Shown here: piece after piece, positions 11 through 63,288 of the stretch
Layout: every line of letters begins with the position of its first letter
Position numbering within the stretch: the first letter of the stretch is position 1
Virus record (IMG/VR): IMGVR_UViG_3300001282_000003
From: an uncultured virus (IMG/VR IMGVR_UViG_3300001282_000003)
Lineage: Duplodnaviria > Heunggongvirae > Uroviricota > Caudoviricetes
Direction: 5' to 3' (one strand)
Length of the DNA: 64,000 nt
Position numbers and translations under genes: made by a program
The notes under the pieces: model-generated
What the model saw: the letters and a program-made list of their open reading frames with translations, nothing else
Database searches by the model: none
Told to the model about the DNA's origin: nothing

Positions 11-595
11 TTATTCTGTCTCAATTTCAAATTCTTCTTCATCACCAAACTTATCATCGATTTCGATTTTTAAGTCAATTAAAAATTCCTCATCAATATC
101 TTTAATTTTAACATTTTTAGTTATTTGACCAATAACCTCAAATGTATCTAGATTATATTTTTTAAATTTAATGTAACACATTTCAATATTTTCATAAGAG
201 AAGTCTTTAGTAGCATCTTTAGGCATAGCATCTTTAATATCAATTGCTAAGTAAAGATTATATGTTGCCTCATCATCTGTAAACTTGATAGTTAAAGAGT
301 CATACATTTTTGAATATTTAGAAACCTCTGAACTATCTAATCTAACGCCTAAATCTTTTAAAGACATTTTAGATTTATCTCTACTTTCAGACTTAGCCTT
401 TTGTATAGATTTACTACCGTCTTTTTCTTTTTCTAATTCATCAGCTGGTCCATTAACATCCGATTCACCTTCTTGAAACTCAAACATCTTATCAAACTTT
501 CTCTTTAATTGGTTAAGTGCTATTTCAACATATGATTCAGGAGTATCATTCATAATCTCCTCGTTGATAAATTCTGAGTATTTTCTAATTTTCAT
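11..595 (-). CDS. hypothetical acidic protein with N-terminal capsid-targeting-like motif (putative internal virion protein)
   Basis: 194 aa ORF starting MKIRKYSEFINEE; AATATATA motif just upstream (600-607, minus strand). Confidence 0.7.
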   Translation of the reverse strand: MKIRKYSEFINEEIMNDTPESYVEIALNQLKRKFDKMFEFQEGESDVNGPADELEKEKDGSKSIQKAKSESRDKSKMSLKDLGVRLDSSEVSKYSKMYDSLTIKFTDDEATYNLYLAIDIKDAMPKDATKDFSYENIEMCYIKFKKYNLDTFEVIGQITKNVKIKDIDEEFLIDLKIEIDDKFGDEEEFEIETE

Positions 596-599
596 AATG

Positions 600-607
600 T
601 ATATATT
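600..607 (-). promoter_or_regulatory. putative phage late promoter (AATATATA)
   Basis: Motif recurs a few nt upstream of start codons at about 13 sites; reminiscent of T4 late TATAAATA. Confidence 0.6.
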
Positions 608-620
608 AAATATTATTCCT

Positions 621-6214: not shown

Positions 6215-6772
6215 TTAAGCGATATGTTTGTCGATTTGTTGAATGTTTAATTCTACCAAAGTTTTTCTACCAAAGATTAAAACAGCAATCTTAACCTTAT
6301 CACCATCAATGTTTTCAACATCACCAGTGAATGAATTAAAAGGACCATCTAAGATTTTAACTTCTTCGCCTATGATGAATCTGTTTGTAGATTCCTGTTC
6401 AACAGCTACTTGTTCTTGTACACCAATCATTCTTTCTACTTCTTTAAGAGAAAGTACTTGAGGTTTTTTAGCTCTATCTGAAAGTAAACCAGTGGCACCA
6501 TCACAACCTTTAACAAAGTGTGCTAATTCTCCAATTGATATTGTTTCAACAAAAATATAACCAGGGTACATAACTTTTTCTCTGGTAACTTTCTTACCGT
6601 CTTTTAAGTGGAAGCTTTTTTCAGTAGGTACTAAAACTCTACTAATAGCACCCATCAAGTCACCTTTTTCAGATTCTTTTCTTAACTTTTCGGCTACAGA
6701 ACGCTCACGATTAGATTGTGCTCTAACGATGTACCACTTCATTGTTGTTTCTTTTTCCATTGTTGTATTCAT
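6215..6772 (-). CDS. nusG: transcription elongation/antitermination factor NusG
   Basis: KWYIVRAQSNRE, YPGYIFVE (NGN domain), GEEVKILDGPFNSFTG (KOW), IFGRKTLVEL. Confidence 0.93.
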   Translation of the reverse strand: MNTTMEKETTMKWYIVRAQSNRERSVAEKLRKESEKGDLMGAISRVLVPTEKSFHLKDGKKVTREKVMYPGYIFVETISIGELAHFVKGCDGATGLLSDRAKKPQVLSLKEVERMIGVQEQVAVEQESTNRFIIGEEVKILDGPFNSFTGDVENIDGDKVKIAVLIFGRKTLVELNIQQIDKHIA

Positions 6773-15651: not shown

Positions 15652-15822
15652 ATGAAGCATTTAAGACCAAGAAAAGAAGATCCATTTAAAGATTTTGCGC
15701 CAGTGATGACAAAAGATTGTCAAGGTGTCTGTGATCGTCAAGTTGTAATGACTAAGGAAGGACCAGTTATTGTTTGTAATGGTTGTATGAGAATTGTAAT
15801 GGATAATAGAGATAAAAAATGA
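15652..15822 (+). CDS. small zinc-ribbon-like protein (56 aa)
   Basis: Not in ORF track; MKHLRPRKED...CQGVC...CNGC; behind TATATTTG 15640-15647; ATGA overlap with rhomboid gene. Confidence 0.6.
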   Translation: MKHLRPRKEDPFKDFAPVMTKDCQGVCDRQVVMTKEGPVIVCNGCMRIVMDNRDKK

Positions 15823-16382
15823 TAAATTTAACACCAGTTGTAAAGCAGTTATTAAAGATTAATGTTATAGCTTTTATTATATCATATCTTTTATTTGAAA
15901 TGGGATTACCTTTTGTTAGTCAATTTCTATTATATCCAATTCAATCTGAAGAATTTCACATCTACCAGCTTGTGAGTTATATGTTTTTACATAGCTCACT
16001 CATGCATATTATATTCAATATGCTAGGTTTAATAACATTTGGACCAGATATAGAAGAAAGATTTGGTAGTAAAAAGTTTTTGAACTATTATTTAATAATG
16101 GGAATAGTATCTGGTTTATGTCATGCTTTATTTATAAGTAATCCAGTTTTAGGCGCATCAGGTGCTGTTTGGGGAGTTATGATGATATATGCTTTATCTA
16201 ATCCAAATACAATTCTACATCTTTACTTTTTAATTCCGGTTAAAGTTAAATATATTGTTGGTGTGTTTTTTACCATAGAGTTATACTTAGCACTTATAGG
16301 TGGTAGTGATGGTGTGAGTCATATTGCTCATGTTGGAGGTGCTTTAACTGGTCTTTTAATTTATTTGCTCAATAGAAAGTAG
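15819..16382 (+). CDS. rhomboid intramembrane serine protease
   Basis: YMFLH, HIIFNM, GASG catalytic Ser motif, AHVGG catalytic His. Confidence 0.93.
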   Translation: MINLTPVVKQLLKINVIAFIISYLLFEMGLPFVSQFLLYPIQSEEFHIYQLVSYMFLHSSLMHIIFNMLGLITFGPDIEERFGSKKFLNYYLIMGIVSGLCHALFISNPVLGASGAVWGVMMIYALSNPNTILHLYFLIPVKVKYIVGVFFTIELYLALIGGSDGVSHIAHVGGALTGLLIYLLNRK

Positions 16383-16545: not shown

Positions 16546-18756
16546 ATGAGAAAATTGCTAACTATGTTATTTTCTGTGATTAGTTTATTTGCTATTTCAC
16601 AGAACTGTCCTGAATTAGGACCAAATCAGATTTTACCTTGTGGTGTAAATACTGCTATATTGACTGCTAACCTAACCGCTTGTGGTGCTGGTACAAATCC
16701 AAATCAAACAACTAACTATTCTGTTGCTTCTATTCCTTATGTTGCTCAAACAAATACGGGAACTCAGTTATTTATGACTGATGATTCACAACAAGGACCT
16801 TTTAATATAGGTTTTAACTTTTGTTTCTTTGGTACAACATACACTCAATTTTATATAGGTTCAAATGGTTGGATATCTTTCTCACCCGCACAACCAACAA
16901 CATTTAGTTCTCAACTAATACCAACTATCAATCCTTTAGTTCCAAAGAACTGTATTATGGGTCCTTGGCAAGATTGGCATCCAGGTTTAGGAGGTCAAAT
17001 TAGATATCAAACGTCTGGTGTTGCTCCTTGTAGAAAACTAACAGTTAGTTGGATTGGGGTTCCAATGTTCTCTTGTACAGGTAATCAAGGAACATTTCAT
17101 ATAGTTATTTATGAATCTAGTAATAATATTGAAAATCATATTCAAAATAAACCGGCTTGTTTAGGTTGGCAAGGTGGTACTGCTGTTGAAGGTATACATA
17201 ACTTAGCGGGTACAATAGGAATTCCAGTACCTGGTAGAAATTCAACTGCTTGGGTTGCTAATAATGATGCTTGGAAATGGACACCTAGTGGACCAGTAGT
17301 TACACCTGTATTAACTTGGTATCAAGTTGGTAATCCAGTTGCTATTGGAACAGGTCCTACTATAACTGTAAATCCATTAGTACCAACACAATATACTTGT
17401 CATTTTGTTTACCCTATTTGTAATGCGGGTTGGACTTCTTGTAATGCTGGTATTGCTGGACCTGGACCAGATACTGTTTTAGTTGTGCCAGGTCCACCTA
17501 ACATTCTTCTTAATACTTCATTTACCGAACCACTTTGTTTTAATGATTGTAATGGGACAGCAACTGTTACTCCAATAACAGGAACACCACTATATAATTA
17601 TTTATGGTCAAATGGTCAAACAACTCAAACTGCTACTAGTTTATGTGCTGGTGTTTATAGTGTAAATGTAACTGATATAAACGGATGTTCAGCAAATACC
17701 ACTGTTAATATAACTCAACCAACACAATTGATTTTTGATAGTTTAGTTTTATCTGATGTTACTTGCTCATTAAATGATGGACAAATTTTTATTTATCCAA
17801 ATGGTGGAACACCAACATATGATTATTTTATAGATGGTTTAATATCAAATGACACAATTACTAATCTCGCTGGTGGTAACTATACAGTTTCTGTAACAGA
17901 TAATAATGGTTGTACTATAGACTCAATCGTTTTTATTGATTTTCCTACACCTATAAATATTTCAGTATCACCAGTTGATACAATTCTTTGTGTTCCAGGT
18001 ACATTCAATTTTATAAATAACTCTACACCTGCTGTTAATATTGTTAGTTCAATAATAGATTATGGTGATGGATTTACTGATAATATATTATCAAATTCTA
18101 ACTTTACACATACTTATAGTACAGTTGGTATTTGGGATGTTATAGTAACAACGGTTAATGATTATGGATGTACATACACACAAACATTTAACAATATAGT
18201 AGAAACCGTTTCATTGCCAGTTTCTCAGTTTATGGTTGGACCAAACCCAACAACAATGTTTGAGACAACTGTTTCTACATTTGATTATTCAGGTCCTAAT
18301 ATTGTGGCTTGGAATTGGTCAGCACCAGGATCTTTAGAACTAACTAGTGGTCTTTCTAATCCAAATTTCACATACCCTGAAGGAATTATAGGTCAGTATT
18401 TAATTACTCTAACAGTTCAAAATAGCTTAGGTTGTAGTGATTCATCTTCTGTTGTTTTAATTGTTAATCCAGATGTATTAACTTATATACCTAATGCTTT
18501 CACTCCGGGTGGTGATGAATTCAATTCAACTTGGAAATTCTACTTATCAGGTGTTGATGAGCAAGATTTCACTATGTCTATATTCAATAGATGGGGTCAA
18601 ATGATATGGGAATGTCATGATATAAATGGTGAGTGGGATGGATCTTATAATGGGTATTATGTTCCAGATGGTTGTTATTTTTGGAAATCTCAGTTTACGG
18701 TTTTAAACTCTTCAGAGAAAAGAACTGTTATGGGTTATGTAACTATTATCAGATAA
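16546..18756 (+). CDS. secreted adhesin-like protein with SprB-like/PKD repeats and T9SS type B (gliding motility-associated) C-terminal domain
   Basis: Signal peptide; YLWSNGQTT...YSVNVTDINGC repeats; C-terminal IPNAFTP...IFNRWG...WDGSYNG...PDGCY. Confidence 0.88.
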   Translation: MRKLLTMLFSVISLFAISQNCPELGPNQILPCGVNTAILTANLTACGAGTNPNQTTNYSVASIPYVAQTNTGTQLFMTDDSQQGPFNIGFNFCFFGTTYTQFYIGSNGWISFSPAQPTTFSSQLIPTINPLVPKNCIMGPWQDWHPGLGGQIRYQTSGVAPCRKLTVSWIGVPMFSCTGNQGTFHIVIYESSNNIENHIQNKPACLGWQGGTAVEGIHNLAGTIGIPVPGRNSTAWVANNDAWKWTPSGPVVTPVLTWYQVGNPVAIGTGPTITVNPLVPTQYTCHFVYPICNAGWTSCNAGIAGPGPDTVLVVPGPPNILLNTSFTEPLCFNDCNGTATVTPITGTPLYNYLWSNGQTTQTATSLCAGVYSVNVTDINGCSANTTVNITQPTQLIFDSLVLSDVTCSLNDGQIFIYPNGGTPTYDYFIDGLISNDTITNLAGGNYTVSVTDNNGCTIDSIVFIDFPTPINISVSPVDTILCVPGTFNFINNSTPAVNIVSSIIDYGDGFTDNILSNSNFTHTYSTVGIWDVIVTTVNDYGCTYTQTFNNIVETVSLPVSQFMVGPNPTTMFETTVSTFDYSGPNIVAWNWSAPGSLELTSGLSNPNFTYPEGIIGQYLITLTVQNSLGCSDSSSVVLIVNPDVLTYIPNAFTPGGDEFNSTWKFYLSGVDEQDFTMSIFNRWGQMIWECHDINGEWDGSYNGYYVPDGCYFWKSQFTVLNSSEKRTVMGYVTIIR

Positions 18757-21967: not shown

Positions 21968-22432
21968 ATGGTGTCTTTGAATAAAGAATATAATCAAATT
22001 GTGAACCTTACTAAATTCAATGTGAATTTTAGTAAGTTTATTCATAATAATGACTTATTGAGTCATAGTCCAGACTATATTCTTGAAAAATATAATCATT
22101 GGATTGGATTTGAACCAACTATTGAGTGTAAATTATATACACCAGATGATATGACTGATTTTTTTCTTAAATATTGGAAAAGATGGGGTATATTTGAAGA
22201 ATATTCTGTGAAAAATATTTTGATGTATCTTTACTCAACTAGAAGTATGAATCTAGTATTAATGTCTGAGAAGTTTGAAGAGTATATCGGGCCAATGAAT
22301 ATGATATCAGATATACCAGATAAAAAAGGATTACATCATAAATCAGATTTATTTATTAATGATGTATTAGAAAAGAATAAAGACAATGTAAAAGTTGTTT
22401 TAAGAGATATGAAAATTGGAAGTATAATATAA
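21968..22432 (+). CDS. hypothetical protein with C-terminal tag
   Basis: behind TATATTTG 21956-21963; ends LRDMKIGSII. Confidence 0.7.
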   Translation: MVSLNKEYNQIVNLTKFNVNFSKFIHNNDLLSHSPDYILEKYNHWIGFEPTIECKLYTPDDMTDFFLKYWKRWGIFEEYSVKNILMYLYSTRSMNLVLMSEKFEEYIGPMNMISDIPDKKGLHHKSDLFINDVLEKNKDNVKVVLRDMKIGSII

Positions 22433-22666
22433 GTCAGAGAAGCTATCGCTGGTAGAAATACTAGAGAAACTTCGACACTACAGAACCTAACACGGGAGAA
22501 TAAGTAAAGAAATTGAAAGTTCGTTTGTACCGAGGAAGTAGCAACACATACAGACTTAGGGTATCGGTTCCCCTTTGATGGTCGGGTTGTGGCAGTCCTT
22601 CGGGACCACTGAAAGGTGAGATAAATGATAGCTTAAAGCAAAATGTCGGGTACGCTCAACTTATAT
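22427..22666 (+). ncRNA. rnpB: compact RNase P RNA (type A-like catalytic domain, reduced specificity domain)
   Basis: P1 ATATAAGT/ACTTATAT, P2 GCTATC/GATAGC, P3 CTGGTA-GAAA-TACTAG, P4 AC(T)TCGACA/TGTCGGGT with bulged U, P5 CTAC/GTAG-CAA, P6 GAACC/GGTTC, L15 GGGT, conserved AGATAAATGAT. Confidence 0.85.
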
Positions 22667-22710
22667 AACTTTCAATTATAAAATAGTAACAAATAAAAAA
22701 TAAAATAAAT

Positions 22711-23175
22711 ATGAAAATGATTAAATTCTTGATGTTGGCTCTTGTAGCAACAATGTTCTTAACTTCTTGTACTGAGAACTATTCTAATGGTGAACGTATT
22801 GGTATGATTACCAAATTCTCACAAAAAGGTCTTGTTTGGAACTCTTGGGAAGGCTCATTAAACACAACACAAACTGGTATGAATAGTGCCACTCCGTTTG
22901 AGTTCTCTGTTGATAATGATGTAAATGATGCTAAAGTTATCTCTACTTTAGATTCAGCGGCTACCGAAGGATGGAAAGTTAAAATTAAATATCATGAAAC
23001 ATTCGGTAAGAACTGGCTTTCTAATAGAGGTGAAACTAATTACTTTGTTAAAGAAGTAGAAGTTTTAGATAGAGACCCAATGGGTAGCGTATTTGGTAAC
23101 TCAAATAATACAGGTGGTAAAGTTGTTGACACAATCTATGTGGTAATCGTTCCAAAAGAAAAAGTAATTAAATAA
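22711..23175 (+). CDS. putative lipoprotein
   Basis: signal peptide with LTSC lipobox; YSNGERIG...KG...WEG motif. Confidence 0.75.
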   Translation: MKMIKFLMLALVATMFLTSCTENYSNGERIGMITKFSQKGLVWNSWEGSLNTTQTGMNSATPFEFSVDNDVNDAKVISTLDSAATEGWKVKIKYHETFGKNWLSNRGETNYFVKEVEVLDRDPMGSVFGNSNNTGGKVVDTIYVVIVPKEKVIK

Positions 23176-34313: not shown

Positions 34314-34877
34314 ATGAAAGTAATATTTTTAGATAATGATGGTGTTGTTTGCTTGTCTACCGAATGGGGTGGACGAGGCAAAAAGAAATCTAAGTACTTG
34401 AAAGAATTTCCAGGTACTGAAGATACTATGCCTGCTTGGGTAAAAATGGATAACTTCAATGATAAAGCTGTTAAGATTCTTAATTCAATCTTATTAGAAA
34501 CTGATGCTGAAATTGTTGTTAGTTCTGATTGGAAGTTATATTGTACTTTAGATGAACTAAAAGAAATGTTTACTAAGTATGGTGTTATCAAACAACCAAT
34601 TGATACTACTCCTAGTATTCCTTTGAAGTATGATAAAAACTATTACACTGCTGGAGAATTAGCTGACTATAGAATAAGTGAAGTTAATAAGTGGTTAAAA
34701 GAACATCCAGAAGTAACTCACTGGGTTGCTGTTGATGATTTGCCTTTAGGTGAATTATATGGTCCAATCTCTGGTAACTTTCTTGGTGGTTTGAAGAACT
34801 TTGTCTTAACACCAAAGAGTTCCGAAGGTATTAAACAAAGTGGCATTAAAGAAAAAATATTAAAATTCTTACTGTGA
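34314..34877 (+). CDS. HAD-superfamily phosphatase (Swiss-army-knife RNA-repair type)
   Basis: IFLDNDGV, IVVSSDW, WVAVDD motifs. Confidence 0.82.
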   Translation: MKVIFLDNDGVVCLSTEWGGRGKKKSKYLKEFPGTEDTMPAWVKMDNFNDKAVKILNSILLETDAEIVVSSDWKLYCTLDELKEMFTKYGVIKQPIDTTPSIPLKYDKNYYTAGELADYRISEVNKWLKEHPEVTHWVAVDDLPLGELYGPISGNFLGGLKNFVLTPKSSEGIKQSGIKEKILKFLL

Positions 34878-39148: not shown

Positions 39149-39976
39149 ATGAAACATCTAAAAAGTATTAATGAATTAAAATCTAGTACATATGCTTCTG
39201 CTGCTAATAAGTTGAAGAATATGGGTCATATTAGAAGATCTGGTGAATTAGAACAATGGACTAAAGAAGTCCAAAATAAAGAAAAAGATGCTAGAGAATT
39301 AGAAAATTTTAATTCATTCAAACACGGTGTTCCTTTCAAAATTAACTTAGTTAAAGTTAAATATAATAGTGCTACTAAAAGTAGAGATCATGACATAATG
39401 GTTACAGGTAACTTTTATCTAAAGCCTTCTTTTGATTTTTCATGGGCTCAAGATCAATACAATGATAATGCTGATGAGAATGGAAATACTGAATACTCTT
39501 ACTATATGCCTTTTGAAGTAGGTATAATGGCAGCAGATGAAGAAACAAAAGAGAAATTCAGATCAATTGAAGAAAATCTTTCTGATGAAGTATATGAAGG
39601 AGTTTATTGGTTACAAAGACTTTATTATAAAATAATTAATGAAGGTTCTAAAGAAATAACTCCAACTGGTGAATTTTCTTGGGAATGTAGAGAAAGTGAT
39701 GAAATAATGTTTGAAAATAGAGCCGAGGCTTTAAGATTCAAAAAGATGTTTGTTGATGCGGTTCACGGTAGAAATACTTTTGGTAATTCAAAATGGGTAC
39801 CAAGTATGCATGAAGAATTAAAGAAATTCTTTTTAGGTGATTGGTTACAGAGATATAATCGTGATACAAAATCATATGATAAAGTAGACAGACAAGAAGT
39901 ATTTAACGAAGAAGCTTTCAAAAGATTCTTAGATTCAACTAATAAAATGTCAATAAATCAATTATATAGAAACTAA
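39149..39976 (+). CDS. paralog family member 2, N-terminal capsid-targeting-like motif
   Basis: MKHLKSINE-LKSSTYASAANKL..MGH; ENRAEALRFK; ends MSINQLYRN. Confidence 0.75.
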   Translation: MKHLKSINELKSSTYASAANKLKNMGHIRRSGELEQWTKEVQNKEKDARELENFNSFKHGVPFKINLVKVKYNSATKSRDHDIMVTGNFYLKPSFDFSWAQDQYNDNADENGNTEYSYYMPFEVGIMAADEETKEKFRSIEENLSDEVYEGVYWLQRLYYKIINEGSKEITPTGEFSWECRESDEIMFENRAEALRFKKMFVDAVHGRNTFGNSKWVPSMHEELKKFFLGDWLQRYNRDTKSYDKVDRQEVFNEEAFKRFLDSTNKMSINQLYRN

Positions 39977-41161: not shown

Positions 41162-42331
41162 ATGAAATTAAAAAGATATAATCAATTTTTAGAATCTAAA
41201 TCTGATATGTGGGATATCATTCCACAATCAGTGAAAGAGTTACACGAACTATTTCAATCAGCAGGTAAGAAACTTTACTTAGTTGGTGGTTCAGTGCGTG
41301 ACTTCTTAACTGGTGATAAACCAAAAGATTTTGACTTAGCAACCGATGCTCTTCCAGATGAAGTTTTGGAAATTGTCGGAGATAAATTTAGAACTAACCT
41401 TCAAGGTAAAGCCTTCGGAGTTGTTGTAGTTTACACTAAAGAAGTTCCAGAAGGAATGGAAATTGCTACATTCAGAGAAGATGTTTCAAAAGGTCGTAAC
41501 CCAGAAGTTAAATTGGGTGTTACTATTGAAGATGATGTTAAGCGTAGAGACTTAACTTACAACTCTCTTTTCTATGATTTAGATACAAGACAAATCGTTG
41601 ACTTAGTTGGTGGTAAAGAAGATTTACAATCTGGTATTACGAGAATGGTTGGTGATCCTATTGAAAGATTTGATGAAGATTCATTAAGAATTTTAAGAGC
41701 ATTTAGATTTGCTTCAAGATATGAACATCCTTTACATAAAGATACTGAAAGTGCTATTGAGAAAAGAAAACAACTTCAAAACATTGATCCAGAGACTGGT
41801 GAAATGAAAAGAATTTCTCAAGAAAGAGTTTGGGAAGAAATGAAGAAAGCTTGGAAACAAGCCAAAGATTACAGATACTACTTATCATTCTTTACTAAGT
41901 TTGATATGTGGGATGAAGTATTTCCTGTTGCTAACATCAATACTAATTTAGTTGATTCAAAAGACTTTATAGTTGTTGTTGCTAACTTATTTAAGAACGA
42001 ATCCACTTTAGGTTTGACTGATAGACTAGCTCAAGAATATAAGATTGAATTAGAAACAGCTACTAAAGTAACTTTCTTACTTTCGTTATTAAATTTCAAA
42101 GTAGAAGATGTATTTGATATTTACAAGAAAAGACAACAATGTGCTATCACTGATGCTACTATTTTAGAGTGGTTAAAAGTCGAAGGTATTGATACTGATA
42201 CTTTAGTTAAGTTTGTTGAATACAAACCAAGTGTATCTGCTCAAGAACTTATGTCTCAAGGATTCAAGGGTAAAGATCTTGGTGATGAAATCAAAAGATT
42301 AGAGATAGAAAAATTTAAACAAATGCTATGA
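41162..42331 (+). CDS. cca: CCA-adding tRNA nucleotidyltransferase (class II)
   Basis: VGGSVRD, DFDLAT, EIATFR, RRDLTYN, EDSLRILRAFRFA, ISQER motifs; N-terminus MKLKRYNQFLES. Confidence 0.92.
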   Translation: MKLKRYNQFLESKSDMWDIIPQSVKELHELFQSAGKKLYLVGGSVRDFLTGDKPKDFDLATDALPDEVLEIVGDKFRTNLQGKAFGVVVVYTKEVPEGMEIATFREDVSKGRNPEVKLGVTIEDDVKRRDLTYNSLFYDLDTRQIVDLVGGKEDLQSGITRMVGDPIERFDEDSLRILRAFRFASRYEHPLHKDTESAIEKRKQLQNIDPETGEMKRISQERVWEEMKKAWKQAKDYRYYLSFFTKFDMWDEVFPVANINTNLVDSKDFIVVVANLFKNESTLGLTDRLAQEYKIELETATKVTFLLSLLNFKVEDVFDIYKKRQQCAITDATILEWLKVEGIDTDTLVKFVEYKPSVSAQELMSQGFKGKDLGDEIKRLEIEKFKQML

Positions 42332-42792
42332 CACATAAATTAACTTATTTAAAAGATGCGGTTGGGAATAATTATGTTGGAATTAATATTCCAAATGAAG
42401 TTGTCGAACCACATTTAGAAAAACTAAAAGAAATTTTAGGTGAAGAAGATTTTGAAATCTTTACACAAAATCAAAAGACGAGAGATCACGGACACTATCA
42501 CATTACTGTTATTAATGTAATGGATTGTAACCGACTTTCTAAAGAAATGGGAATGGCTAACTTTGTTAAATCAGTTGAATTAGCATTTGATTATACTGTA
42601 GAAGATTTAGAACTATTAGGTGTTGGCATGGCTTCTAAGAATGCCAATACCGCTTACTTTATAGTTTGCTCATCTGATAGTTTAGATGCCGTTAGAACTC
42701 GTTTTAACTTACCTAAACAAGACTTTCATGTTACACTTGGTTTCAATACTAAAGATGTGTTTGGTGTTCCAAAAAATTTGGTAATAAATTAA
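42328..42792 (+). CDS. 2H phosphoesterase (RNA repair type)
   Basis: two HxT motifs, YHITV and FHVTLG; coupled to cca. Confidence 0.82.
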   Translation: MTHKLTYLKDAVGNNYVGINIPNEVVEPHLEKLKEILGEEDFEIFTQNQKTRDHGHYHITVINVMDCNRLSKEMGMANFVKSVELAFDYTVEDLELLGVGMASKNANTAYFIVCSSDSLDAVRTRFNLPKQDFHVTLGFNTKDVFGVPKNLVIN

Positions 42793-43179: not shown

Positions 43180-45993
43180 TTAGAATGTATATTTAACTGA
43201 GGCTGATATTGTTTGACCAAAGTTTATGTTTTGCCAATTGTTATCACCTTTATCATACTTTTGATTACCGTTCAAGTCTTGGAAGTAAACTAAGTCTTGA
43301 GCTAAGATATCTTTTATATTAAGTTTTGTTTCAAAGTGTTTACCAAACTTTTTAGATACTTGAAAGTCTATAACATTTCTTCCATTTTCCCAAACTGAAG
43401 GCTCTTGAATATTACCTACAATGTAAATTCTTTGACCAATTACATTATAAGATAAAGTTACTGTCATATCTTTCTTAGGTGTATTATAGAATATACCAGA
43501 GTTTATAATGTAAGGTGACTGACCTTGTAGTGGTCTGTTCTCACCAGAACCAATGAAGTGACTCATATCAACTGTTGACTTTATTAAAGACAGGTTTGAA
43601 TAAACTGTTATGTTATCCCATACTTTACTTTCTTTCTTACAGAATGTTCCTAAGTTATATCTAATTTCAAATTCAGCACCGATATTTGTTACTTTATTTA
43701 CATTAGCGTAGTAAAGTTCAGGTGCTCCTGATGTACCAGTTCTATTGATTAACTCAATTGGATTCTCAAATGTTTTATAGAAACCAGATACAGATATGAT
43801 TTGACCTTTACCAGGATACATTTCCCATCTAACATCAAAGTTATCTATGGTAGCTCTTTTCAAATTAGGGTTACCACTTACTATATTATCAATAACAAAG
43901 TTATAGAAACTAAATGGTGCTAACTCTCTAAACTCTGGACGAGAAACTGTTCTATAATAAGAACCTCTTACTTTCATCTTTTTGTTTAACGAATAAACTA
44001 TATTAACTGATGGTAAGAAATCAACAACTGTTGTATCAATATGTTTATTTTCGTTAGAACCAAACTCAATATAATTAAATTGTTGATTATATGACTCTAT
44101 TCTTAAACCACCAATGATTCTAAACTTCTCACCAATCTTTGTATCTGTCATTGCGAAAGCCGCATTTAGAAAAGAGTTGGCTTGATAACTATCATCAACA
44201 TTTGTAGCTTCATCTAATTTGAAACCTCCTTGACCATTTGATAAAAGACCCATATTTTCTTGAGAGAATATCTCATCTGGTCCTAATAGTAGTAAGTTAC
44301 TATTGAATGTGCTACCTGTTGGTTTGTATTGAGAGAACCCTAAGTTTCTTGATGAGAAATCACGAGTTCTGTATTGATGCCATCCACCTATCTTAAATTC
44401 ATTTTCTATTTTATTAAAAGTAAAAGGAATAGACCAATCATAATTAGCACTGTAGATTTTCTCAGATGATTTAGACCAAAACATATTACCAGCCGCAGTT
44501 GGAATAGTTCCATTTTGTTGAATAATAGCTGTCCATTGTTGAGTTGTATCATCTTCAAGTAATGAATACTTACGATAAACTAATCTTCTAAGATTTGGAA
44601 TATCTCTTTTAACATCACTGAATCCTAAATTCCAGTTCAATTTAGTTTTCTTAATCTCATGTTTACCATATAGTTGTTGAGTTAATAAATTGTTTTGTGT
44701 ATACCAGAAGTTTGTTGATCTTTCCCATTGACGAGGATCATTATCCATCTCTCTAACACCGTTTCTAATATTTACTTTATCTTCTGAATTGATAGAATAA
44801 AGATTTTTGAATCTAATTATGTTCTTATCATTAATCTGATAAGCAAAGTTTAACATAGCACTATTCAAAATAGTTTGAGTAAATACAGAATCTTTCAATT
44901 CCATTTTTTGAACAACACCTGCTGATTGTTCTTCAAAGTCTCTTCTTACTGAGTTATTCATAGTAGAAGCACTTTGATAACTATAAGCGAAAGTTATACC
45001 AAGTGAGTTATCTTTTTTGAATTTGATATATCTACCAATCGAGTATTGTAAACTACCAATTGGTAAAGCCAATCTTGATTTAGTTGACCAAGAAGTGTTA
45101 ATCATTTTTGATAAATCCGCCTTATCTGACTTATTTAGAGTAGAAAAGTCTAAAGTACTTGGCATTGATTCAGGTAAACTTCTATAGTTAGAACCAAACC
45201 CTAAGAAGTCAGTAGAACTTCCTTGATAAGTTTTGAAGTTTTGAAATGTAGATATCGCATTGAATCCTAAACCATACTGAATACTTTGAAACTTAGAATC
45301 TTTTGGTTCAGATGTGCTGATATTAATAACACCACCAGCAAACTCACCTGGCATATCTGGTGAACCAGACTTCATAACAATTAGATTATCTAACATATTA
45401 GAAGGAAAGATATCAAATGAGAAAGCTTTTCTATCTGATTCTGAACTTGGTAGTGGAGAACCATTTATTAGAGCGAAGTTGTATCTATCATTTAGACCAC
45501 GAATAACTACAAACTTATTATCTTGTACAGAAGCACCACTCACTCTTTTGAATACATCTGATACTTTCGTATCTGGTGTTTTCTTAAAAGTTTCAGCATT
45601 AACACCATCTTGAACGACAGCACTGTTGCTTTGTTGTTTAACTAAATCAACTGTTGATTCTTTATTAGCTTTAGCTTTAACTGTAACAGTTCCTATGTCT
45701 AAAGTTTTTTCCTTTAACTTTATATTTAAAGTGTCTTTTGATGTCGCTTTAATGAATTGTGAATGATAACCCATGTATCTAAATTCTAAAGAGTAAGTAG
45801 GTTTATCTAAACCTTTCAATTCAAATTTACCATTTATGTCAGTTGTGGTTCCTTTTCCGGACTCACCTTGAATTAGTATCAACACGCCAATGACTGGCTC
45901 GTTTGAAATCGAGTCAGTCACTGTGCCTGATATTTGTGAAAATGCTGTAAGTGTCGATATTAAGAATGTAAATATCAGTAAGAGTTTTTTCAT
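43180..45993 (-). CDS. TonB-dependent outer-membrane receptor (Bacteroidota type)
   Basis: signal peptide, carboxypeptidase-regulatory-like N domain (GTTTDING), plug (IRGLNDRYN, GEFAGGVINI), GNPNLK, terminal Phe (VKYTF). Confidence 0.92.
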   Translation of the reverse strand: MKKLLLIFTFLISTLTAFSQISGTVTDSISNEPVIGVLILIQGESGKGTTTDINGKFELKGLDKPTYSLEFRYMGYHSQFIKATSKDTLNIKLKEKTLDIGTVTVKAKANKESTVDLVKQQSNSAVVQDGVNAETFKKTPDTKVSDVFKRVSGASVQDNKFVVIRGLNDRYNFALINGSPLPSSESDRKAFSFDIFPSNMLDNLIVMKSGSPDMPGEFAGGVINISTSEPKDSKFQSIQYGLGFNAISTFQNFKTYQGSSTDFLGFGSNYRSLPESMPSTLDFSTLNKSDKADLSKMINTSWSTKSRLALPIGSLQYSIGRYIKFKKDNSLGITFAYSYQSASTMNNSVRRDFEEQSAGVVQKMELKDSVFTQTILNSAMLNFAYQINDKNIIRFKNLYSINSEDKVNIRNGVREMDNDPRQWERSTNFWYTQNNLLTQQLYGKHEIKKTKLNWNLGFSDVKRDIPNLRRLVYRKYSLLEDDTTQQWTAIIQQNGTIPTAAGNMFWSKSSEKIYSANYDWSIPFTFNKIENEFKIGGWHQYRTRDFSSRNLGFSQYKPTGSTFNSNLLLLGPDEIFSQENMGLLSNGQGGFKLDEATNVDDSYQANSFLNAAFAMTDTKIGEKFRIIGGLRIESYNQQFNYIEFGSNENKHIDTTVVDFLPSVNIVYSLNKKMKVRGSYYRTVSRPEFRELAPFSFYNFVIDNIVSGNPNLKRATIDNFDVRWEMYPGKGQIISVSGFYKTFENPIELINRTGTSGAPELYYANVNKVTNIGAEFEIRYNLGTFCKKESKVWDNITVYSNLSLIKSTVDMSHFIGSGENRPLQGQSPYIINSGIFYNTPKKDMTVTLSYNVIGQRIYIVGNIQEPSVWENGRNVIDFQVSKKFGKHFETKLNIKDILAQDLVYFQDLNGNQKYDKGDNNWQNINFGQTISASVKYTF

Positions 45994-45999
45994 ATAGAA

Positions 46000-47583
46000 T
46001 TATTTTCTAACTATAATCTTTTTTGTTGTATTATCAACTTGTAAGAAATAGATACCATTCGTAAGTGTACTAACATCTAAACTAAGATTTCCTGATACTG
46101 TTTGAGTATTAATTACTCTACCCATACCATCGATTAAAGTTACTTGTACTAATCTATCAGTTGTGATGTTTACATTGTTTGTAGCAGGGTTAGGGTAGAT
46201 AGATACGTTTGTAGTTTTAGTAATCTCATTTACACTAACAAATCCACCAACAAATTTAGAGTTTGTGAAATCAGCTCCTGTTGCTACTAATGAAGTAGAA
46301 TCTAATCTACAGTCAGGTGTAGTTCCTAATGTTGGAAAAGCATTGACCCAATTGATTTGAGATACTGAAGTTGTTGTATCATTTACTGAAGCAACTGTTG
46401 TAAAGAAAGTTGGTGTGGCAGTTACATAACTAGCACCTAAAGGTAGTTCAGTTAAAACATTGTTTGAGAAAACTAATGTTCCAGATGTTACGTTATTCTC
46501 ACAAGAAGGACCTTCGATTGATAATCCTTTTTCCCAACCAACTACTAAAGAGTTGAATACTGAGATAGAAGAGTTTCTTCTAATTCTAAAAGCTTTTTCA
46601 AATTTTTCACCAACTGGTAAAGATAAAGAACCATTTCCTTTAGCTCCAATAATTGTTAAGTTTGAGAATATTGCTGCTGTTTGTGGTGTGTTAGCTGAAC
46701 CAGCCGCATCGTTATCTGATTCTAAACCGTTTGAGTCACCAGCCGCATCATACATAGTATTATCACGAATGATTAAACCAAATTGAATTCTACCTCTGTA
46801 ACCAAAATCAGTATCGAAGTCATCATCAATTCCTCTGTAAGCGATTAGATGTTTACAATCAACTGTGCCACCAAACCATTCGTAAGAGTCATCACCTGAG
46901 AAAGAAACTTGTATAAAGTCTACTTGAGTTCCTCTACCAACTGAACCAAAAGTAATACCGTTGATTTCTTTGTTTGGTTCTAAAGCGATACCAGCAAATT
47001 CAATTCTTACATATTTTAATGAACCTGAGTTATCATTGTCATCTGATCCACCATATTGTGTATTAGCAGTTGGTACAATACCTTCAATGTTAGCAACACC
47101 ACCTGGTTGATTATTTGTAGCTTGACCTAAGATAACTAAACCACCCCAGTCACCTTCAGCTCTATTACCAACTGATTCATTTGAAGTGAAAACGATTGGT
47201 AAGTTTTGTGTACCTTCAGCTATTATTTTACAACCTTTAGTAACGATTAAAGTTGCTTGTGTTGCTTTGTCACCTCTGATAATTGTACCAGGTAAGATAG
47301 TTAATGTAGCTCCGTTAGTTACATAGATTTTATTTTGTAATAAAACATTACCACCGATTGTTGTGTTTGTTGTAATGTCTGAGTTAAGTGTAGAAGTAGT
47401 TGAAGGATAGTTAGTGTTTTCTGGGTCGAAATTTGACCATCCATATGTCCAGTTTGTACCTGGTGTTCCATCAGTTACAGGGAATGCTCCTTTGTAAGAT
47501 GTTGCTGTCCAAAATGTAGACTGTGCGTTTAGACTAAGATTAAGACCAAGTCCGATTAAAATAAGAGTAAATAATTTTCTCAT
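46000..47583 (-). CDS. secreted beta-helix-like protein with T9SS type A C-terminal sorting domain
   Basis: signal peptide; GDWGGLVILG, DNSGSLKYVRIEFAG, DDSYEWFGG; C-terminal IYPNPA...GIYFL...KKIIVRK. Confidence 0.88.
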   Translation of the reverse strand: MRKLFTLILIGLGLNLSLNAQSTFWTATSYKGAFPVTDGTPGTNWTYGWSNFDPENTNYPSTTSTLNSDITTNTTIGGNVLLQNKIYVTNGATLTILPGTIIRGDKATQATLIVTKGCKIIAEGTQNLPIVFTSNESVGNRAEGDWGGLVILGQATNNQPGGVANIEGIVPTANTQYGGSDDNDNSGSLKYVRIEFAGIALEPNKEINGITFGSVGRGTQVDFIQVSFSGDDSYEWFGGTVDCKHLIAYRGIDDDFDTDFGYRGRIQFGLIIRDNTMYDAAGDSNGLESDNDAAGSANTPQTAAIFSNLTIIGAKGNGSLSLPVGEKFEKAFRIRRNSSISVFNSLVVGWEKGLSIEGPSCENNVTSGTLVFSNNVLTELPLGASYVTATPTFFTTVASVNDTTTSVSQINWVNAFPTLGTTPDCRLDSTSLVATGADFTNSKFVGGFVSVNEITKTTNVSIYPNPATNNVNITTDRLVQVTLIDGMGRVINTQTVSGNLSLDVSTLTNGIYFLQVDNTTKKIIVRK

Positions 47584-49017: not shown

Positions 49018-49105
49018 TAAAGTAGCCCTTGGGCCTCGTTAAGCCTCTTACCCTAGTGGTAACGTAACGAGTGGGAGTAGGGTAACACCGACGCCTCCCA
49101 AATTT

Positions 49106-57114: not shown

Positions 57115-57459
57115 ATGAAACTCGATATCAATGAAGTTTACCACAATTATATAGTTAGAATAGTAATATTTGCTCTTTTTACTTTCAAAAGACAGATAAG
57201 ACAACCAAATATTTATAAGATTTCTGTTATAACTTTCACTATTAAAAGATTGCCTTGGAAAATTAATTTAGTAATTGATACTGGATTGAAATTAAATAAA
57301 GAAGATGAAAGAGAAATACTACTTAATGAATTATTAGAGGGTATTGAAACAGATTATTTATCAACAGTTGTTGTTACATTTGTGACACCATTAAAAGAAG
57401 TTACGATGAGTATTGATTTAAGTGATGAAGAAAAGTATGAACACTATCTTTATTCTTAA
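57115..57459 (+). CDS. hypothetical protein
   Basis: 114 aa; internal EREILLNELL resembles the tag. Confidence 0.55.
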   Translation: MKLDINEVYHNYIVRIVIFALFTFKRQIRQPNIYKISVITFTIKRLPWKINLVIDTGLKLNKEDEREILLNELLEGIETDYLSTVVVTFVTPLKEVTMSIDLSDEEKYEHYLYS

Positions 57460-58748
57460 TATTCAAATATTACTTCAGCTCTTCTGTAGTTTAAGTCATA
57501 TGAACTAAATCCAAAGATATCACAGATTCTTTCAAATTTATCATCACAACTTTCTTCAGATGGTAATTCACCATCATAAGCATAAGAACTAAATTCTAAT
57601 TTTGTTTCATAATCACCTATTCTTATACTTTCAACTCTGAATCCTAACTTTTCAACTTCTTCTCTTAACTCATCTTCATCAGGCAATTCGAATTTATCAT
57701 TTTCAATATCTGTCTTACTAAATTCAAAAAATACCCAATCAATTTTAACTTCTTTACCTTTTCCACTAGTTTCACTACGCCAAGCACCATCAGATCCTGC
57801 TCTAAAAGTAGAAAGAACCCAACCATCTTCACCTAATCTACCAATTGTGGATTGCATGTTATCAAGCACTACCATTAAGTTATTATAACTACCATCTTTA
57901 GGTGAATAAACAATAGTAAATTTACTAACCGTTTTATTTTTAGATACAAGAACTGGTTTGAAGTTTTGATACCTTGTATTCTTCTCAAGATAATCTGTAT
58001 AAGTCATTTCACCAGTAGATGATTTGAATGTTATCTTTTCACCTTCATCAATAAAGTCTAACATAGTATCAACTATCTTATCAACTTCATTTTCAATACC
58101 GTGTGATTCTCTTAAAAAAGAAACATACTTATCTACTTTTCTTTTCTTTAACTCACCATTATCAAATTTATAGTATTTATAATTACCATCTTTATTAAGA
58201 ACAACATAGAAAGCATCTGGTTTAACATATTTCAAATAACTTTTTGTAGTTTGTAGTTGAGTTGAGTAGACATGGTCGATATAATCATCATCTGCCGTAT
58301 GACCACCCGTCATTCCTCTTTTTTTGTTTTGTGACTTAGCAGTCTCAACATCAATTAAAATTAAGATAAACATTATCTTATATCCTAATTTTTGAGCGTC
58401 TTTTGTAATTTCAAAAACATTTATATCATTTGAGCCAGTTGTGTCATAGATAAAGTTTTGACCGCTTTTCATATAATGTTTTAATGAAGTAATATTTAAT
58501 TCAGAAGCTCCTTTGTAATAGTCAGACTTGTCTTTAGTAAACAAATAAGAAACATCATCTGTTGAAAATGTTTTGATATTTGAATTATGAGGAACAATGA
58601 ATCTATTGGCAAATGTAGACTTACCAGAACCAGGTAGACCTAAAAGAACAATGCCAAGTTTTTCTTTCATCCTATTGATTTCAGGAATAGGATCATTCTT
58701 AGAATACTCTTCATTTACAAAACCACTGAAATTGTTAATAACTTTCAT
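57456..58748 (-). CDS. P-loop kinase (AAA_33/zeta-toxin/PNK-like) fused to an unknown domain; capsid-targeting-like motifs
   Basis: GLPGSGKS, FIYDTTG; N-terminal FSGFVNEE and internal YVSFLRES; AATATATA 58755-58762. Confidence 0.72.
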   Translation of the reverse strand: MKVINNFSGFVNEEYSKNDPIPEINRMKEKLGIVLLGLPGSGKSTFANRFIVPHNSNIKTFSTDDVSYLFTKDKSDYYKGASELNITSLKHYMKSGQNFIYDTTGSNDINVFEITKDAQKLGYKIMFILILIDVETAKSQNKKRGMTGGHTADDDYIDHVYSTQLQTTKSYLKYVKPDAFYVVLNKDGNYKYYKFDNGELKKRKVDKYVSFLRESHGIENEVDKIVDTMLDFIDEGEKITFKSSTGEMTYTDYLEKNTRYQNFKPVLVSKNKTVSKFTIVYSPKDGSYNNLMVVLDNMQSTIGRLGEDGWVLSTFRAGSDGAWRSETSGKGKEVKIDWVFFEFSKTDIENDKFELPDEDELREEVEKLGFRVESIRIGDYETKLEFSSYAYDGELPSEESCDDKFERICDIFGFSSYDLNYRRAEVIFEY

Positions 58749-62799: not shown

Positions 62800-63288
62800 T
62801 TAGATTTGTGGACCTACAGCTTCACCTGAAACAGTTTCAACTTCAGTGTAGTACACACCTTTTTCTTTAATAACTTCTAAGATTTGCTCAGTAGCATCGA
62901 TGTTATCTGTATTAAAAATAACTTCCATTTTACCCATAACCAAATTGATTGAATTAGCAGTAGCCCATTCTTCAACAATAACTGCTAGTTGTTCAAAAAC
63001 ATTTGTATTTAATTCATCAGACATTTCTTTAAGTTTTCTTTTAAAGTCTTGGTCTAATTTCATTAATTTGTCTTGGATTTGTCTAAATGCTTCCATATCT
63101 CTTTTTTGAGATGCTTCATCCAGTACTAAATCTGATTGAGATCTTTTAATGATAGTTTCCATTTCCTTTTTATCAGGATCTATACTTTCTAACATTTTTC
63201 TTTTTTCAGATTCGATTTGTTTGTAACCTTCAACATATGGTTGAAAGTTTCTTGTTAAAACTTCAAAGTCTATTACTCTTAATTCCAT
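62800..63288 (-). CDS. OmpH/Skp-like chaperone lacking an obvious signal peptide
   Basis: RVIDFEVL start, long coiled coil, WATANSINLVM...DATEQIL ending typical of Skp. Confidence 0.7.
   Translation of the reverse strand: MELRVIDFEVLTRNFQPYVEGYKQIESEKRKMLESIDPDKKEMETIIKRSQSDLVLDEASQKRDMEAFRQIQDKLMKLDQDFKRKLKEMSDELNTNVFEQLAVIVEEWATANSINLVMGKMEVIFNTDNIDATEQILEVIKEKGVYYTEVETVSGEAVGPQI

Follow-up and report, generated by a model that had tools for sequence, protein, structure and literature searches.

A putative phage-encoded RNase P RNA with a rewritten P4 helix and a specificity domain reduced to a stub

The RNA subunit of ribonuclease P (RNase P) is regarded as a cellular housekeeping ribozyme, with helix P4 as its most conserved element. 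The specificity domain (S-domain) of the bacterial RNA binds the elbow formed by the T-loop and D-loop of tRNA. Here, we describe a structured RNA encoded by an uncultured virus, within a stretch of 64,000 nucleotides from the IMG/VR record IMGVR_UViG_3300001282_000003 (the whole stretch is called the window below). From comparison with other phage RNAs we conclude that it is a homologue of the bacterial type-A RNase P RNA, a relationship that is reached transitively, and we consider it likely that positions 22428-22665 encode the RNA that would be the catalytic subunit of an RNase P owned by the phage.

Natural loss of nearly the whole S-domain has been described for the archaeal type-T RNA of the Thermoproteaceae, to which, in the available part of the source, this state is confined (PMC7191817). 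The catalytic domain of the Escherichia coli RNA cleaves substrates by itself, at reduced efficiency, according to the accessible portion of PMC5839562. Diverged RNase P RNAs are found in CPR (candidate phyla radiation) bacteria, and for the megaphages there the accessible text reports only tRNAs and a transfer-messenger RNA (tmRNA) as detected (PMC8172020). The available part of PMC7191817 mentions neither phages nor viruses, and full-text searches of a literature in which coverage of subscription journals is thin turned up no publication describing an RNase P RNA encoded by a phage or virus.

The window RNA shares with E. coli rnpB (type A, RF00010) helices P1-P5, a P4 with a bulged U, P6 pairing to L17, P15-P17 and CGGGU in L15, together with the J5/15 CAA; in both RNAs the P2 3' strand follows AGAUNAAUG and the P4 3' strand follows an A-rich J2/4. 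In the Rfam alignment, E. coli rnpB reads GGAG-CAA-P15..CGGGUA and then AGAUGAAUG..ACAGAA, and the order of elements in the window is identical. The protein partner of bacterial type-A RNAs, RnpA, is encoded here by relatives of the phage. Unlike type A, the window RNA is phage-borne and 238 nt long, with a 34-nt stub in place of P8-P14 and six of the eight P4 pairs changed; P18 is missing across its family or gives way to small hairpins, and RF00010 does not match at E<=10. As E. coli rnpB measures 377 nt and four bacterial rnpB matches span 356-449 nt, "miniaturised", the word chosen in an earlier note made from this DNA alone, is apt. The type-T RNA (RF02357) resembles the window RNA in being a natural RNase P RNA nearly without an S-domain; however, it has an archaeal catalytic domain and archaeal protein partners and is a cellular gene, whereas the window RNA carries the bacterial P15-P17/L15/P6 set and showed no type-T match at E<=10 in a scan of 4227 Rfam families, taken to include RF02357. 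The engineered E. coli catalytic-domain constructs, in the accessible portion of PMC5839562, likewise lack the S-domain, but they are laboratory deletions with a canonical P4, in contrast to a natural gene kept by selection.

The RNA was delimited with a covariance model, R1, which was built from five family members only, lacks the canonical P4 word and leaves the P4 and P6 pseudoknots unmodelled. R1 matches 238 nt on the + strand with 265.1 bits over model positions 1-216, and the ends given here are those of the outer P1 pair. The earlier note had placed a phage RNase P RNA at 22427..22666, which is essentially borne out, and had described the region as a GC-richer intergenic stretch, which agrees with a GC content of 0.40 across the RNA against 0.25-0.29 in the flanks. 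The RNA lies in an intergenic gap of 278 nt between two + strand open reading frames (ORFs), 21968..22432 and 22711..23175, neither of which has a Pfam or PHROG match, and its P1 5' strand overlaps the TAA stop codon (22430-22432) of the upstream ORF. A promoter-like TTAAGA-17-TATAAT ends at 22428; such sites number 5, compared with 5.9 +/- 2.6 expected in shuffles, so the counts do not exceed chance, and a terminator scan at the locus found none.

Homologues of the gap are few. The sole relative in the phage collection by blastn is LR745206.1 (634,780 bp, labelled "uncultured phage"), which is 73% identical over exactly the gap, and four more relatives, identified through exact-word scans and the nearest virus record, are IMG/VR contigs. 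Among these five homologues, 97.0% of 301 alignment cells pair, compared with 33-39% when the 3' partners are slid, and double changes are found in 11 of 65 pairs, a figure matched by none of 500 shuffles. Exact-word scans of viral contigs yielded two member loci and one member locus, and in another such scan 2 of 26 loci scored as members. With R1, a more distant member came to light at 63.9 bits in G022, a viral fragment of 58 kb, and 14 members among 66 metagenome loci bearing the P4 word. One of these, on a 215-kb contig, equals the window's score, and another, on contig TARA_..., is only 197 nt long. The family comprises 15 distinct aligned sequences (alignment A8) of 197-257 nt. A further candidate, L096 (R1 13.8 bits), was rejected as a member, as it reads as coding sequence. 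In 185,579 species genomes there are 36 occurrences of the rewritten-P4 word, all of them outside the family.

For the wider covariation analysis we used 12 sequences, omitting L065 and L214, whose 3' parts are misaligned by the model, and L245, a near-copy of L006. Pairing is observed in 95.7% of 677 cells, against 28-38% when slid, and 34 of 57 pairs show compensatory changes, which none of 500 shuffles reaches. Because the sequences were aligned by fitting them to the model, the counts for helices that it contains are biased in its favour. The two helices that the model does not contain behave in the same way: P4 pairs in 94.8% of cells with three of eight pairs covarying, and P6 in 100% with three of five. 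Because homologues covary in this manner, including at the unmodelled P4 and P6, the conserved RNA structure is real, far beyond chance. A covariation check on homologues had been proposed in the earlier note, and its outcome supports the fold described there, P4 and P6 included.

The connection to RNase P runs through phage RNAs with an ordinary P4. Scanning viral contigs for the canonical P4 word gave at least 116 stretches, and 80 loci were searched with R1, filters off. R1 matches one of them, L156, end to end at 67.9 bits (E 2.2e-15), followed by L153 with 27.2 bits, L102 with 24.7 bits, and L152 and L177, both with 22.2 bits, at E-values from 2.7e-5 (L153) to 4.9e-4 for these four; the E-values of R1 and of the second model, R2, are rough, since calibration was shortened. 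The alignments to L156, L177, L153 and L152 all run end to end. RF00010, with a gathering threshold of 100 bits, scores L156 (368-610) at 84.9 bits (E 3.8e-25), below that threshold, and L153, L177 and L152 at 103.5, 118.5 and 173.1 bits, in all four at nearly the coordinates given by R1. L102 reaches 247.4 bits with RF00010 (367-705), and the partial R1 match falls inside that interval. R2, built from the 3' half of the RNA alone, finds L156 (45 bits, 5e-8) and L102 (E 0.0064). A weak R1 match elsewhere in the window, at 39747-39894 (18.7 bits, E 0.004), lies within coding sequence and is probably due to chance.

These canonical-P4 phage RNAs from IMG/VR (L156 243 nt, L177 207 nt, L153 290 nt, L152 298 nt) are phage-borne and reduced and share the architecture of the window RNA. 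They differ in keeping GGAAAGUCCGGG/ACAGAACCCGGCUUA in P4 and in scoring 85-173 bits with RF00010, where the window family has a rewritten P4. Since R1 links the window to phage RNAs that RF00010 recognises, and since relatives encode RnpA, we conclude that the RNA is homologous to RNase P RNA. The claim that the RNA is phage-encoded stands as well, given that its relatives come from virus records of IMG/VR and from LR745206.1 and that the window has phage-type genes.

RnpA was identified in two near-complete genomes with the rewritten-P4 RNA, G002 (476 kb, 97% complete) and W01 (634,780 bp), where it scores 49 bits and the Pfam cut-off is 22.3; the RNR motif is present and the TIGR00188 equivalog cut-off is passed. 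These genomes have 59 and 61 tRNA matches, respectively. The fragment G022 contains the RNA, an RnpA gene 11 kb from it and 25 tRNA matches. In contrast, no RnpA was found in any of five phage records with a canonical-P4 RNase P RNA (that of L102 among them), three of which are at least 96% complete. The two groups also differ in their surroundings: tRNA genes adjoin three of the four canonical-P4 phage RNAs tested, and tRNA matches stand beside the RNase P RNA in 8 of 10 canonical-P4-word loci scanned, an arrangement that the window family does not have. Both the RNA and RnpA are absent from all 12 smaller phages of at least 90% completeness, which have in common with the window only a neighbouring lipoprotein-like gene, and an RnpA pattern scan of prokaryote genomes found nothing. 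The association of a rewritten P4 with an own RnpA suggests co-evolution of RNA core and protein, on three records against five. The structure, the homology, and the RnpA and many tRNA genes of relatives were all computed here.

We infer the expression of the window RNA, its assembly with RnpA, its catalysis and its substrates from these computed results. The RNA retains the type-A catalytic domain, namely P1-P5, the P4/P6 pseudoknots, P15-P17 with the L15 GGU, J5/15, J18/2 and J2/4, whereas all that is left of its specificity domain is a helix of 5 bp enclosing a stub of 34 nt. It probably assembles with a phage-encoded RnpA into an enzyme that removes the 5' leaders of the phage's own tRNA precursors. 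An RNA with no specificity domain cannot read the tRNA elbow; substrates would probably be placed through contacts of the catalytic domain with acceptor stem and leader, and through the hold of RnpA on the leader.

Several results weigh against the window RNA being such an enzyme. No RnpA was found among the 84 ORFs scanned in the 64-kb window, and no tRNA gene was found in the fetched flanks of any of 16 rewritten-P4 family loci. The three tRNA genes of the window have no encoded CCA, so contact between L15 and CCA would need prior addition of the CCA; the nearest of them is 26 kb from the RNA. With six of eight P4 pairs and both bases just 5' of the bulged U changed, activity may be lost or altered. 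Direct matches to known RNase P RNAs are also lacking: at the Rfam gathering threshold the window gave no RNase P match; at E<=10, no RNase P-clan match was found with all 4227 families in window 22300-22800, L004, L005 or L006, nor any RF00010 match in the records of four relatives (G001, G002, G003 and W01). Neither R1 (filters off) nor R2 matched E. coli rnpB or four bacterial rnpB loci, and R1 on 121 Bacteroidota genomes gave one partial match only, of 28 bits at model positions 57-110. The fold energy of the RNA stretch is at the level of shuffled sequence (minimum free energy z -0.09 on the + strand and -0.21 on the - strand). Every helix named in the earlier note can be placed on the sequence, and it had also anticipated that standard models may score the RNA poorly, as the Rfam results bear out at both thresholds; because the fold energy is no better than in shuffles and no Rfam match exists, placing helices on one sequence proves little, and the backing for the fold comes from covariation across homologues.

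The elements of the RNA are listed in Table 1, with the P4 pairings and the coordinates of the canonical-P4 phage RNAs.

Table 1. Elements of the window RNA (window coordinates), P4 pairings, and positions of the canonical-P4 phage RNAs on their own contigs
Feature	Coordinates	Strand	Pairing or remark
P1 5' strand (UAUAAGU..GAG)	22428-22434 and 22437-22439	+	pairs with 22655-22657 and 22659-22665
P2 5' strand	22440..22447	+	partner 22627-22634; compensatory changes in 6/8 pairs
P3 hairpin, GAAA loop	22449..22464	+	covaries
P4 5' strand ACUUCGACA	22469..22477	+	one bulged U (either of two U's); long-range pairing with 22644-22651
P5 5' strand CUAC	22478..22481	+	partner GUAG 22538-22541; 2/4 pairs covary
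P6 5' strand GAACC	22483..22487	+	pseudoknot to L17 GGUUC 22566-22570; 3/5 pairs covary
Specificity-domain stand-in	22491..22534	+	P7-like 5-bp helix CACGG/CCGAG around 34-nt stub 22496-22529
J5/15 CAA, P15 (CACA/UGUG), P16 (GAC/GUC), P17 (AGGG/CCCU), L15 3' side GGGU	22542..22591	+	GGGU of the L15 3' side is 22584-22587
Two hairpins at P18 position, UUCG and GAAA loops	22595..22618	+	optional; directly before AGAUAAAU
J18/2 AGAUAAAU, P2 3' strand GAUAGCUU, J2/4 AAAGCAAAA	22619..22643	+	
P4 3' strand UGUCGGGU	22644..22651	+	partner of 22469-22477
P1 3' strand	22655..22665	+	
P4 pairs, canonical (L156)			AU AU GC [U] CG CG GC GC GC
P4 pairs, window			AU CG UG [U] CG GC AU CG AU
P4 pairs, L004 and L005			AU GC UG [U] CG GC CG GC AU
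Canonical-P4 phage RNA L156 (contig 202,737 bp)	368-610		
Canonical-P4 phage RNA L177	368-574		
Canonical-P4 phage RNA L153	358-647		
Canonical-P4 phage RNA L152	146-443		

In the rewritten P4, a long-range helix that forms a pseudoknot with P2, the geometry of 3 bp, a bulged U and 5 bp is kept, in a register that aligns with the canonical phage RNA L156, and the identity of six of the eight pairs differs from the canonical helix. Double changes are seen at three of the eight pairs within the family and at six once L156 is added, and 94.8-98.2% of cells pair. Five of 12 sequences have A-A at the innermost position. A covarying P4 with its bulged U retained, as the earlier note had it, is therefore upheld on a helix that was not modelled. 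The Rfam consensus strands of canonical P4, 5' GGAAAGUCCGGG and 3' ACAGAACCCGGCUUA, were not found in the window RNA, which has GAGAAACUUCGACA and GCAAAAUGUCGGGUA in their place. L004 and L005, with GGAAGUUCGCGA and ACAG(A/G)AUCGCGGCUA, are nearer to the consensus and still changed. Part of the change runs from G/C to A/U, in a genome of about 30% GC.

Across the 12 homologues, the remaining helices of the catalytic domain vary by compensation. P1 pairs in 98.3% of cells, with compensatory changes in 8 of 10 pairs. P3 carries a GUAA loop and an A-U to G-C exchange in L004, has a hairpin inserted into it in L001 and is a mini stem of 3 bp in the L065 group. P5 appears also as CAUC/GAUG and CACC/GGUG and pairs in every cell, and P6 as GAAAC/GUUUC, CAACA/UGUUG, CAACUC/GAGUUG and UAACAC/GUGUUA. 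Compensatory changes were counted in two of four pairs of P15, one of three of P16 and two of four of P17, and the CGGGU of L15 is invariant in 12 of 12 aligned sequences. The junctions vary within the family as AGAUAGAUG and AGACAAAUG.

An S-domain with P7-P14 and the conserved regions CR-II and CR-III is absent from the window RNA, in which only the 5-bp P7-like helix and a variable stub are found. Three of the five pairs of the helix covary. The stub hairpin varies in length and sequence, while just a 5'-terminal GAG and a 3'-terminal CGUUNNNA of the stub recur; the hairpin is of the UUCG type in L001, L236 and L272 and of the GAAA type in L271, where the stub is shorter. The earlier note had read a "CR-II/CR-III-like AGUAAAGAAA-UUGAAA" in this region. 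That reading is not supported, as the segment is this variable hairpin and the string is unconserved across homologues.

The hairpins at the P18 position are present in six of the 15 sequences of alignment A8 (the window, L245, L006, L254, L236 and L269) and absent in seven. For L065 and L214, the model puts a longer, unrelated insert at this position, which is read as lying after the P2 3' strand. This extra insert of about 35 nt, with two hairpins, was observed in L065 (on G022, about 1501-1590, - strand) and in L214, where R1 misaligns that part of the RNA. We take its site to be the P19 position of some bacteria.

The division between canonical-P4 phages without RnpA and rewritten-P4 phages with it is the basis of a further idea, which we hold only tentatively and think more doubtful than not. 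Giant phages may run a private, orthogonal RNase P, in which the elbow reader has been shed and P4 re-coded in co-evolution with the phage RnpA. Such a pair might process the tRNA transcripts of the phage with no need of the host's enzyme, or while that enzyme is shut down.

Among the other explanations, the one that fares best, although we judge it unlikely, is an RNase P-derived RNA whose job has changed, so that, through its rewritten P4 and lost specificity domain, it acts on substrates other than ordinary precursor tRNAs, or is orthogonal to the host and works with the phage RnpA only. Candidate substrates would be the spacers in dense phage tRNA arrays, phage mRNAs and tRNA-like elements. 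The distribution of RnpA fits this, as the protein accompanies the rewritten P4 in both near-complete genomes and one fragment and is absent from all five canonical-P4 phage records, three of them at least 96% complete, and so does the position of the genes, with family members in tRNA arrays at 0 of 16 loci and canonical-P4 RNAs adjoining tRNAs in three of four. The numbers are small, however, with three records against five, and, the genome having a GC content of about 30%, compensated drift may explain the shift of P4, which is in part one to A/U. Moreover, the L15 GGU, the J5/15 CAA and the J18/2 and J2/4 positions for precursor-tRNA cleavage are all kept.

We give a still lower probability to a catalytically dead mimic, which would serve as a decoy for host RnpA or precursor tRNAs or regulate host RNase P during infection. 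The replacement of near-invariant P4 bases and the lack of a direct link to cellular rnpB from Rfam or from R1 and R2 would be in keeping with it, but a decoy would not require a phage-borne rnpA. In addition, compensatory change across diverged members preserves the geometry with the bulged U, as well as P6, L15 and every junction motif, and motifs of the whole fold held in this way argue for selection on an entire active fold. That this is an unrelated structured RNA merely resembling the RNase P catalytic domain, as the missing Rfam match at E<=10 and helix labels assigned by eye might suggest, is very improbable, given that full-length R1 matches coincide with RF00010 calls with nearly equal ends in four of five cases, that R2 finds L156 at 5e-8, and that relatives encode RnpA. 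The catalytic subunit of a phage-owned RNase P remains the reading that we prefer.

The window appears to belong to a very large phage whose host is a member of the Bacteroidota; its PHROG matches include families of tail fibre and of tRNA nucleotidyltransferase, and it contains type IX secretion sorting domains. Related phages have nothing between the two flanking genes (L008, 1440-1500) or an unrelated small ORF (L054 and L056, 1970-2370), and the R1 matches there are no more than weak (E 0.36-0.63). Because the slot is empty or otherwise filled in such relatives, the RNA gene seems to have been inserted or lost at one fixed position.

Other genes of the window were noted in passing. A set for RNA repair and tRNA end maintenance is encoded at 34314-34877, 41162-42331, 42328-42792 and 57456-58748; its members are two domains known from "Swiss Army Knife" RNA repair proteins, one of HAD type and one a 2H phosphoesterase, together with a tRNA nucleotidyltransferase of the CCA-adding type and a polynucleotide-kinase/zeta-like ATPase. 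Envelope-type genes of Bacteroidota kind were observed at 15819-16382, 16546-18756, 43180-45993, 46000-47583 and 62800-63288, comprising a rhomboid protease, type IX secretion cargo of the SprB/PKD/CHU_C type, a TonB-dependent receptor, a Por_Secre_tail protein and OmpH. A NusG-like protein is encoded at 6215-6772. A GC-rich stretch of 80 nt at 49020-49100, just upstream of a tRNA-Met gene, has no Rfam match, and its fold (z -0.83) is not distinctive.

The RNA described here would be a virus-encoded RNase P RNA of bacterial type, with its own protein in relatives. It would also represent a natural bacterial-type enzyme without a specificity domain, a state that, as far as the available part of PMC7191817 goes, has been described for archaeal type T only. 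Standard annotation misses such genes. The family offers natural P4 sequence variants in which the geometry is kept, and in combination with the lost domain these may serve as a test of which features of P4 catalysis needs and of how proteins compensate for lost RNA domains, which should greatly interest those who study RNA enzymes or phages. If the private, orthogonal enzyme suggested above were real, the near-universal sequence of P4 would be dispensable for catalysis, and the partner protein would set which core sequences are tolerated.

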